Positions 1 through 334 of a stretch of DNA of 334 bases are shown here, one piece after another. The stretch comes from Escherichia coli (GTDB taxonomy: Bacteria; Pseudomonadota; Gammaproteobacteria; Enterobacterales; Enterobacteriaceae). Location of the stretch: assembly GCF_003334765.1 (NCBI RefSeq), contig NZ_QOWT01000138.1; one strand, written 5' to 3'. The stretch's first letter is position 1; every line of letters starts with the position of its first letter. Made by a program: the position numbers and the translations under genes. The notes beneath the pieces were generated by a model. That model ran no database searches. It was not told the DNA's origin and saw only the letters and a program-made list of their open reading frames with translations.

Positions 1-30
1 CCGGCTCTGCCATGGGAGGATTGCCAATGA
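1..30 (+). CDS. citD: 3' end of citrate lyase acyl carrier protein (gamma subunit) gene; last 9 codons plus TGA stop, 5'-truncated by the window edge
   Basis: Frame ending at 28-30 reads ccg gct ctg cca tgg gag gat tgc caa tga = P A L P W E D C Q *. This matches the C-terminus I recall for E. coli CitD, and the gene sits immediately upstream of citE as in the citCDEFXG operon. Only 9 codons are visible, so the call depends on recalled sequence and synteny. Confidence 0.7.
14..20 (+). promoter_or_regulatory. Shine-Dalgarno ribosome-binding site for citE, embedded in the citD coding tail
   Basis: GGGAGGA at 14-20 (core GGAGG at 15-19) is complementary to the 16S rRNA anti-SD. A 6-nt spacer (21-26) separates it from the ATG at 27-29, within the usual optimal range. 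Confidence 0.75.
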
Positions 31-334
31 TTTCCGCTTCGCTGCAACAACGTAAAACTCGCACCCGCCGCAGCATGTTGTTTGTGCCTGGTGCCAATGC
101 CGCGATGGTCAGCAACTCCTTCATCTACCCGGCTGATGCCCTGATGTTTGACCTCGAAGACTCCGTAGCATTGCGTGAAAAAGACACCGCCCGCCGCATG
201 GTTTACCACGCGCTGCAACATCCGCTGTATCGCGATATTGAAACCATTGTGCGTGTCAACGCGCTGGATTCCGAATGGGGTGTTAACGACCTGGAAGCCG
301 TCGTTCGCGGTGGTGCGGACGTTGTGCGTCTGCC
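27..334 (+). CDS. citE: Citrate lyase beta subunit (citryl-CoA lyase), N-terminal 102 codons; 3'-truncated by the window edge
   Basis: ATG at 27-29 is preceded by a strong SD. The frame is open to the end of the window (102 full codons plus 2 nt). Translation: [103 protein letters not shown]. It contains the LFVPG...D-LED...RVN pattern typical of the HpcH/HpaI/CitE family and matches my recollection of the E. coli CitE N-terminus. Codon usage is enterobacterial (ctg, ccg, cgt/cgc, no rare TTA/CTA/TCA). Confidence 0.9.

Follow-up and report, generated by a model that had tools for sequence, protein, structure and literature searches.

The citD/citE junction of Escherichia coli

The window (the whole 334-nt stretch of DNA analysed here) spans the boundary between citD and citE in the citCDEFXGT operon of E. 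coli; among 5,426 complete E. coli genomes, 5,422 match it at 95-100% identity. In NZ_CP025842, the genes run in the order citC-citD-citE-citF-citX-citG-citT, which gives citE the operon neighbours of a citrate lyase subunit gene; RefSeq places citD at 4734-5030 in locus L001. The features of the window are as follows:

1-30, plus strand: 3′ end of citD (acyl carrier protein, gamma subunit), translated as ...PALPWEDCQ, with the stop TGA at 28-30; from RefSeq
13-20, plus strand: SD of citE, TGGGAGGA, inside the Trp-Glu-Asp codons of CitD; −10.2 kcal/mol with the anti-SD
27-30, plus strand: ATGA start/stop overlap, citE ATG at 27-29 and citD TGA at 28-30
27-334, plus strand: 5′ part of citE (citrate (pro-3S)-lyase beta subunit), codons 1-102; from the TIGR01588 score
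30-53, plus strand: codons 2-9 (ISASLQQR), a variable, lineage-specific N-terminal tail; from entropy, the diverse CitE alignment and the AF2 model
54-74, plus strand: codons 10-16 (KTRTRRS), the conserved basic strip of the CitE core; from conservation and TIGR01588
72-89, plus strand: beta-strand 1 of the TIM barrel (residues 16-21, SMLFVP); from the AF2 model and fold matches
75-77, plus strand: Met17 codon, a hydrophobic beta-strand 1 residue and not an initiation codon; no SD, Met or Leu in the family

On either strand of 27-92, there is no Rfam match at E ≤ 1 and no promoter- or terminator-like site, and the other strand carries no open reading frame. Two copies of a weak 23-nt direct repeat (74% identity; 27-49, ATGATTTCCGCTTCGCTGCAACA, and 198-220, ATGGTTTACCACGCGCTGCAACA), each of which begins with an in-frame ATG, are most likely a chance match. 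In E. coli TOE17 (NZ_CP069093; L002, 1-1516), the match to the window starts only at position 11; directly upstream lie a gene for a Com-family regulator and a hypothetical gene, an arrangement that resembles one end of a Mu-like prophage integrated into citD. The TOE17 citE keeps its SD and ATG and has lost the overlapping upstream gene.

Identity and predicted fold of the citE product

The full-length CitE has 302 residues and scores 452.1 bits against the NCBIfam equivalog TIGR01588, above the cutoff of 443.4, with CitE residues 12-299 aligned to profile positions 1-288. Its AF2 model (pLDDT 96, pTM 0.91) has malyl-CoA lyase, CLYBL, and CitE-like structures as top fold matches, and the residues expected to act in catalysis, the catalytic Arg (R76) and the Glu and Asp metal (Mg) ligands (E139 and D166), are invariant among 83 sequences; they correspond to Arg76, Glu141 and Asp168 of MCLR (PMC3832036). 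Between them, the AF2 model and the 83-sequence alignment provide the fold, the catalytic Arg and the Mg-binding Glu/Asp of a CitE-like TIM barrel. Judged by its sequence, the citE product is CitE, the citrate (pro-3S)-lyase beta subunit, with predicted lyase activity.

Initiation signals at two in-frame ATG codons

Where does CitE begin? Translation of 27-334 gives R-K-T-R-T-R-R at codons 9-15 (51-71), five basic residues in seven, and an in-frame ATG as codon 17 (75-77), immediately 5′ of LFVPG. A sequence-only reading of this DNA had described both correctly; it preferred the annotated ATG27 and considered Met17 as a possible true start. Its report of a strong SD before the first ATG and none before the second agrees with the pairing energies: the SD core GGGAGGA (14-20), separated from ATG27 by a 6-nt spacer, pairs with the 16S rRNA anti-SD at −10.2 kcal/mol, as compared to +0.6 kcal/mol for the best pairing 5′ of ATG75. 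The second ATG is preceded by the GC-rich cgcacccgccgcagc (60-74), which contains neither an SD nor an A-rich tract and is 15 nt long, not the 12 nt given for it earlier. A further feature, absent from that reading, is the overlap of ATG27 with the citD stop at 28-30.

The same architecture recurs across a junction survey that covers citD-citE from 80 species of Enterobacterales and Pasteurellaceae, 79 of them with usable upstream sequence. In all 79, citE starts 6-17 codons upstream of the Met17 equivalent (with ATG in 70 and GTG in 9) and an SD of −5.9 to −11.5 kcal/mol lies 4-7 nt before that start. The two genes overlap by NTGA in 55 species, by TAATG in 10 and by 17 nt in 14; thus, the pattern typical of coupled genes, an overlap with the SD inside the upstream gene, is present in 79 of 79. 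At the internal ATG, the best SD found in any of these species is −5.7 kcal/mol, most are above −3 kcal/mol, and none is comparable to the upstream signal.

The citE SD is made of codons that specify the conserved C-terminal Pro-Trp-Glu motif of CitD, and codon choice at this point is skewed. In every species that has Glu there (64 of 64), the Glu codon within the SD is GAG, against a background of 24% GAG among the Glu codons of citE from the same loci. The nominal p value of 3e-40 is inflated by shared ancestry, as the species are not phylogenetically independent, but the direction is unambiguous: this synonymous site in citD is kept in the SD-forming state.

The junction also varies in detail. 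Some Citrobacter, Buttiauxella, Yersinia, and Serratia use GTG as the citE start while keeping the citD stop overlap and the SD; the overlap is GTGA in seven of these loci (L012, L017, L020, L021, L028, L034, and L068) and 17 nt long in two (L056 and L059). The CitD of Serratia and of one Pantoea is slightly extended at the C-terminus (...ENAE in Serratia), and the citD TAA stop lies 14 nt inside citE, which yields the 17-nt overlap in place of ATGA (L054-L057, L059, L061-L067, L075, and L077, mostly Serratia).

A conserved basic strip behind a variable tail

Are the residues between the two ATG codons real protein? In the 79 species, R14, R15 and S16 are invariant and are encoded by five, four and two synonymous codons, respectively; R12 is Arg in 92% of species (Lys in the rest) and uses five Arg codons, K10 is Lys in 92%, and positions 11 and 13 and residues 2-9 vary freely (per-position entropy 0.9-2.7 bits). 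Because the amino acids are held constant while their synonymous codons turn over, this segment must be translated, and translation must begin upstream of codon 10; residues 10-16 thus bear the codon-level signature of a translated peptide under selection.

Part of the strip is conserved in distant CitE sequences as well. In a diverse alignment of 83 CitE sequences (34-88% identity to E. coli), 78 have Arg15, which places it among the columns that are at least 90% conserved, 74 have Ser/Thr16, and 46 have Arg14; residues 2-9 are mostly missing. Nearly all of 150 representatives at ≤50% identity carry [L/I]-R-R-[S/T] as the segment that precedes the strand. The TIGR01588 profile aligns from CitE residue 12 and the RipC/Ccl model from residue 15, and relatives in the PDB match E. 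coli R12-T-R-R-S16 with R-L-H-R-S (5UGR), R-P-N-R-C (4L9Y), T-R-S (3QLL), and L-R-S (1SGJ). In the AF2 model, beta-strand 1 comprises residues 16-21, so Ser16 is already in the strand; residues 11-20 have a mean pLDDT of 96, and residues 1-10, in which a short helix (4-10) is predicted, average 80. The conserved CitE core therefore begins at about residue 10-12, not at LFVPG, and Met17 is a hydrophobic beta-strand residue that is Met or Leu across the family: its ATG is invariant in the 79 close species, while among the 83 diverse sequences 33 have Met and 29 have Leu at position 17, and 50 altogether have Leu, Arg or another residue there. As for the basic cluster, a window with five basic residues in seven is reached in 6.3% of shuffles of the CitE sequence; the cluster is not significant by composition alone, and its reality rests on conservation.

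What, then, is lineage-specific? Sixteen residues precede the Met17 column in E. coli, as compared to a median of 6 in 72 diverse CitE sequences (interquartile range 5-9, range 3-18, none zero), and the net charge of this segment is +5 against a family median of +2. Within the Enterobacterales, the tail is 16 residues long in Escherichia, Citrobacter, and Salmonella, 15 or 8 in others, and 12 in Providencia, Edwardsiella, Serratia, and Klebsiella; in Pasteurellaceae, it is 10 or 6. Only some 8-10 residues (ISASLQQR) are thus lineage-specific, making the tail about 10 residues longer than the family median. The suggestion that all 16 residues form an extension in front of the core, perhaps lineage-specific, survives for residues 2-9 and fails for residues 10-16, which belong to the conserved core; likewise, the ortholog alignment proposed as a check for an enterobacterial extension finds residues 2-9 to be lineage-specific but Arg15 to be family-wide (78 of 83). 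The homologs described as beginning near LFVPG start 3-18 residues upstream of it (median 6) and always keep RR[S/T].

Database proteins that begin at the Met17 position

A handful of database proteins do begin with MLFVPG or MMFVPG, and the DNA of five was inspected. One of these, represented by eight Logan contigs, has a normal SD-ATGA start followed by a poly-A run of six (A6), at which the frame is broken; the in-frame reading MSPERKKRTRRS, as found in the related Moellerella locus L039, requires A7, so the gene caller fell back on the internal ATG. In the remaining four, the upstream sequence reads in frame as M-E-R-L-R-R-T, M-Q-R-L-R-R-T or M-K-R-N-I-R-R-S, written with differing synonymous codons; in one of them, the CTG-AGG-AGA codons for L-R-R mimic an SD. 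All five short starts are gene-calling artefacts and not natural short forms.

The A6 run in this Moellerella-like citE corresponds to codons 5-7 (L083 and L084, 566-603), between the normal start and the core, and could be either a homopolymer sequencing error or a genuine frameshifted allele. In a metagenomic lineage (L085, 48-74), L-R-R is written CTG-AGG-AGA, which creates an SD-like GAGGAG just after the citD stop and 4-7 nt before an internal ATG-ATG; this is the only lineage in which the upstream and internal start signals are truly ambiguous. A locus labelled Chryseobacterium sp. 18061 (CACSKA010000002; L038) has a cit junction of the enterobacterial type, a CitE 84% identical to that of E. 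coli and an N-terminus that hardly differs from that of Citrobacter sp. 18056 (L035), an entry of the same study; this suggests a mislabelled or contaminated assembly.

Experimental start-site data

N-termini of the Klebsiella subunits were reportedly sequenced by Bott and Dimroth in 1994; Bekal et al. purified the Leuconostoc citrate lyase in 1998, in work that is said to have included N-terminal sequencing.

In E. coli, initiation has been mapped in vitro by INRI-seq, in which the citE template was a synthetic transcript from −30 to +153 that includes both ATG codons (PMC9825163). The annotated citE initiation site (TIS) fell below the threshold and was not called, with a peak in one of five replicates, while citD and citF, whose transcripts were similarly abundant or scarcer, were called; some 30% of the annotated starts in E. 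coli likewise went uncalled (PMC9825163). Table S3 of that study, which lists non-annotated TISs, has no citE entry and none at +48, in a data set where the annotated citE TIS is also uncalled, and the in vivo Ribo-RET signal for citE is zero (PMC9825163, Tables S2, S3, and S6), probably because the operon was not expressed under the conditions used. These data are neutral to weakly supportive for ATG27 and lend no support to ATG75. The N-terminomics supplements of TRAINSPOTTER do not list citE (PMC13245402).

Why would a start with an SD of −10.2 kcal/mol initiate poorly in vitro? Dependence on upstream translation is one possible reason. A hairpin that sequesters the SD was considered as the cause and rejected: in the minimum free energy structure, the GGG of the SD pairs with an upstream CCC, but the fold is no stabler than dinucleotide shuffles (z = +0.70 for 46 nt, −0.08 for 86 nt).

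Alternative readings of the N-terminus

Could ATG75 be the true and only start, with the annotated 16 codons as untranslated intercistronic sequence? This ATG is in frame and invariant in the 79 species, a few database proteins begin there, and INRI-seq did not call the annotated start; yet these short gene calls are artefacts, the ATG lacks an SD, INRI-seq reports no alternative TIS at +48, and position 17 is not Met in 50 of 83 homologs. Furthermore, the alignments to the family model and to PDB relatives extend upstream of residue 17, Ser16 lies within beta-strand 1, and the conservation of R14, R15 and S16 as amino acids while their synonymous codons turn over effectively refutes this reading; we regard it as having almost no chance of being correct, and Met17, which the sequence-only reading had entertained as the true start, is not a start site. 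A milder version, in which ATG27 is the main start and ATG75 a minor one that yields a CitE isoform lacking residues 1-16, is slightly less remote but still very improbable. Internal in-frame starts exist in E. coli (bioRxiv 10.1101/520783), the ATG is invariant in the 79 close species, and in one distant lineage CTG-AGG-AGA mimics an SD in front of it. But the E. coli ATG75 has neither an SD nor an A-rich tract and shows no INRI-seq peak, in a data set where ATG27 is uncalled as well; the place of Met17 within the strand accounts for its invariance, and the product, deprived of the invariant R14, R15 and S16, with the last of which beta-strand 1 begins, would probably misfold or lack activity.

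Finally, T-R-R-S-M-L-F superficially resembles the Tat consensus [S/T]-R-R-x-F-L-K, with small or hydrophobic residues following it, and might be taken for an export signal or for another basic peptide that mediates targeting or nucleic acid binding. Citrate lyase, however, is a cytoplasmic complex; the motif is internal in CitD-CitE fusions, the stretch forms beta-strand 1 of a confidently modelled TIM barrel, and the same motif occurs in solved CitE-like enzymes, none of which, to our knowledge, is a Tat substrate. The first 60 residues have no match to a Tat family at E ≤ 10; the Tat signal is rejected, and this whole class of explanation has a vanishingly small likelihood.

The start of citE is, with high confidence, ATG27, as annotated in RefSeq, and 27-92 encodes the genuine CitE N-terminus, because the ATGA overlap, the architecture shared by 79 species, the GAG bias in the SD and the conservation upstream of Met17 all point the same way; the earlier preference for the annotated start, based on the SD, is thus borne out on broader grounds. 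The segment is the ordinary, correctly annotated start of a well-known gene. Beyond annotation hygiene (the RefSeq citE start is confirmed), the result matters little, although it does account for some database CitE entries that seem to begin at the internal Met: gene callers are led astray by frameshifts and by Arg codons that look like an SD.

Possible translational coupling and a proposed role of the basic strip

Start/stop overlaps commonly couple translation of adjacent genes that encode subunits of one complex. At this junction, ribosomes initiate citE at ATG27, from an SD in the last citD codons and with the start overlapping the citD stop, so that citE translation may be coupled to that of citD. 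The gene layout suggests this coupling, and the poor initiation in vitro is compatible with a dependence on upstream translation.

In the protein, residues 10-16 (K-x-R-x-R-R-S) run directly into beta-strand 1 as part of the enzyme core. Most likely, the basic strip would help to hold the phosphates of the CoA-like prosthetic group of CitD, near the nucleotide pocket, and/or would pack against the C-terminal lid of the neighbouring subunit. We infer this biochemical role because of malyl-CoA lyase structures, in which (i) an irregular N-terminus leads into beta-strand 1 and flanks the C-terminal lid domain; (ii) a residue at the start of beta-strand 1 contacts the CoA adenine; and (iii) Arg, Lys, and His bind the CoA phosphates (PMC3832036). 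No residue-level role of the pre-strand Arg is described in PMC3832036 or PMC6689899 (Rv2498c), and none emerged from literature searches on CLYBL, Roseiflexus MCL, and Pseudomonas Ccl. Lyases that act on free CoA esters have Arg15 too, so this residue is not specific to ACP docking.

Could the strip and the tail together do something more specific? K10, R12, R14 and R15, along with the enterobacterial tail, might serve as a docking element for the acidic CitD ACP and for the phosphates of its 2'-(5''-phosphoribosyl)-3'-dephospho-CoA arm, as a remnant or an equivalent of the tether in CitD-CitE fusions. We consider this doubtful. Should the docking reading be true, the longer and more basic tail of Escherichia, Citrobacter, and Salmonella would serve to tune how the citrate lyase complex assembles. 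In fusions, the linker enters CitE at the place of the pre-strand R-R-[S/T] and the tail, and this is a sensible place to seek contacts with the ACP or its prosthetic group.

Comparison with CitD-CitE fusions and related enzymes

Natural CitD-CitE fusions are common among distant relatives of CitE (e.g., P0128, P0140, and P0166). Among 34 long representatives (at least 365 aa), 26 have a CitD-like domain, N-terminal in 25; P0148 has the reverse order, with the CitD-like domain at residues 326-406. In 20 N-terminal fusions in which both parts could be located, a linker of 11-43 residues, often basic, is followed by RR[S/T]-x-L-[F/Y]-x-P-G. Since RR[S/T] is internal in these proteins, it is part of the polypeptide whatever start codon is chosen.

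A different set of fused CitD-CitE ORFs (P0001, P0002, P0006-P0008, P0040, and P0080; 383-400 aa) is 85-100% identical to E. coli CitE. Each is found in one or two Logan or ENA contigs, with the junction at the equivalent of window positions 20-30, and 1-nt indels at the ATGA junction could account for them, as assembly errors or as rare real fusions.

In the natural fusions (about 380-430 aa), the CitD-like ACP domain precedes CitE and the junction ends in (L)-R-R-[S/T]; the E. coli tail corresponds in position to the end of the fusion linker. Unlike in the fusions, the E. coli proteins are separate polypeptides encoded by overlapping genes (ATGA), and the fusion linkers cannot be aligned with ISASLQQR. 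In this overlap, citD/citE resembles translationally coupled gene pairs of bacterial operons (ATGA/TAATG), sharing with them a start that overlaps a stop, an SD within the upstream gene, and products that are subunits of one complex.

Other bacterial CitE proteins (TIGR01588) share with the E. coli enzyme the family, the cit operon context and the R-R-[S/T]-x-L-[F/Y]-x-P-G entry to beta-strand 1. Short-tailed forms, such as MKPRRSMLFIPG (P0133 and P0151) and those of Aggregatibacter (L073 and L076), retain RRS in all cases. Malyl-CoA lyases and CLYBL (5UGR, 4L9Y, 4L80, and 5VXO) have the same TIM barrel as CitE, with TM scores of 0.8-0.87, and an irregular N-terminal segment that leads into beta-strand 1, with Arg residues aligned with E. 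coli R12 and R15. However, these enzymes use free CoA thioesters, whereas CitE uses an ACP-bound prosthetic group, and neither R14 nor K10 is conserved in them.
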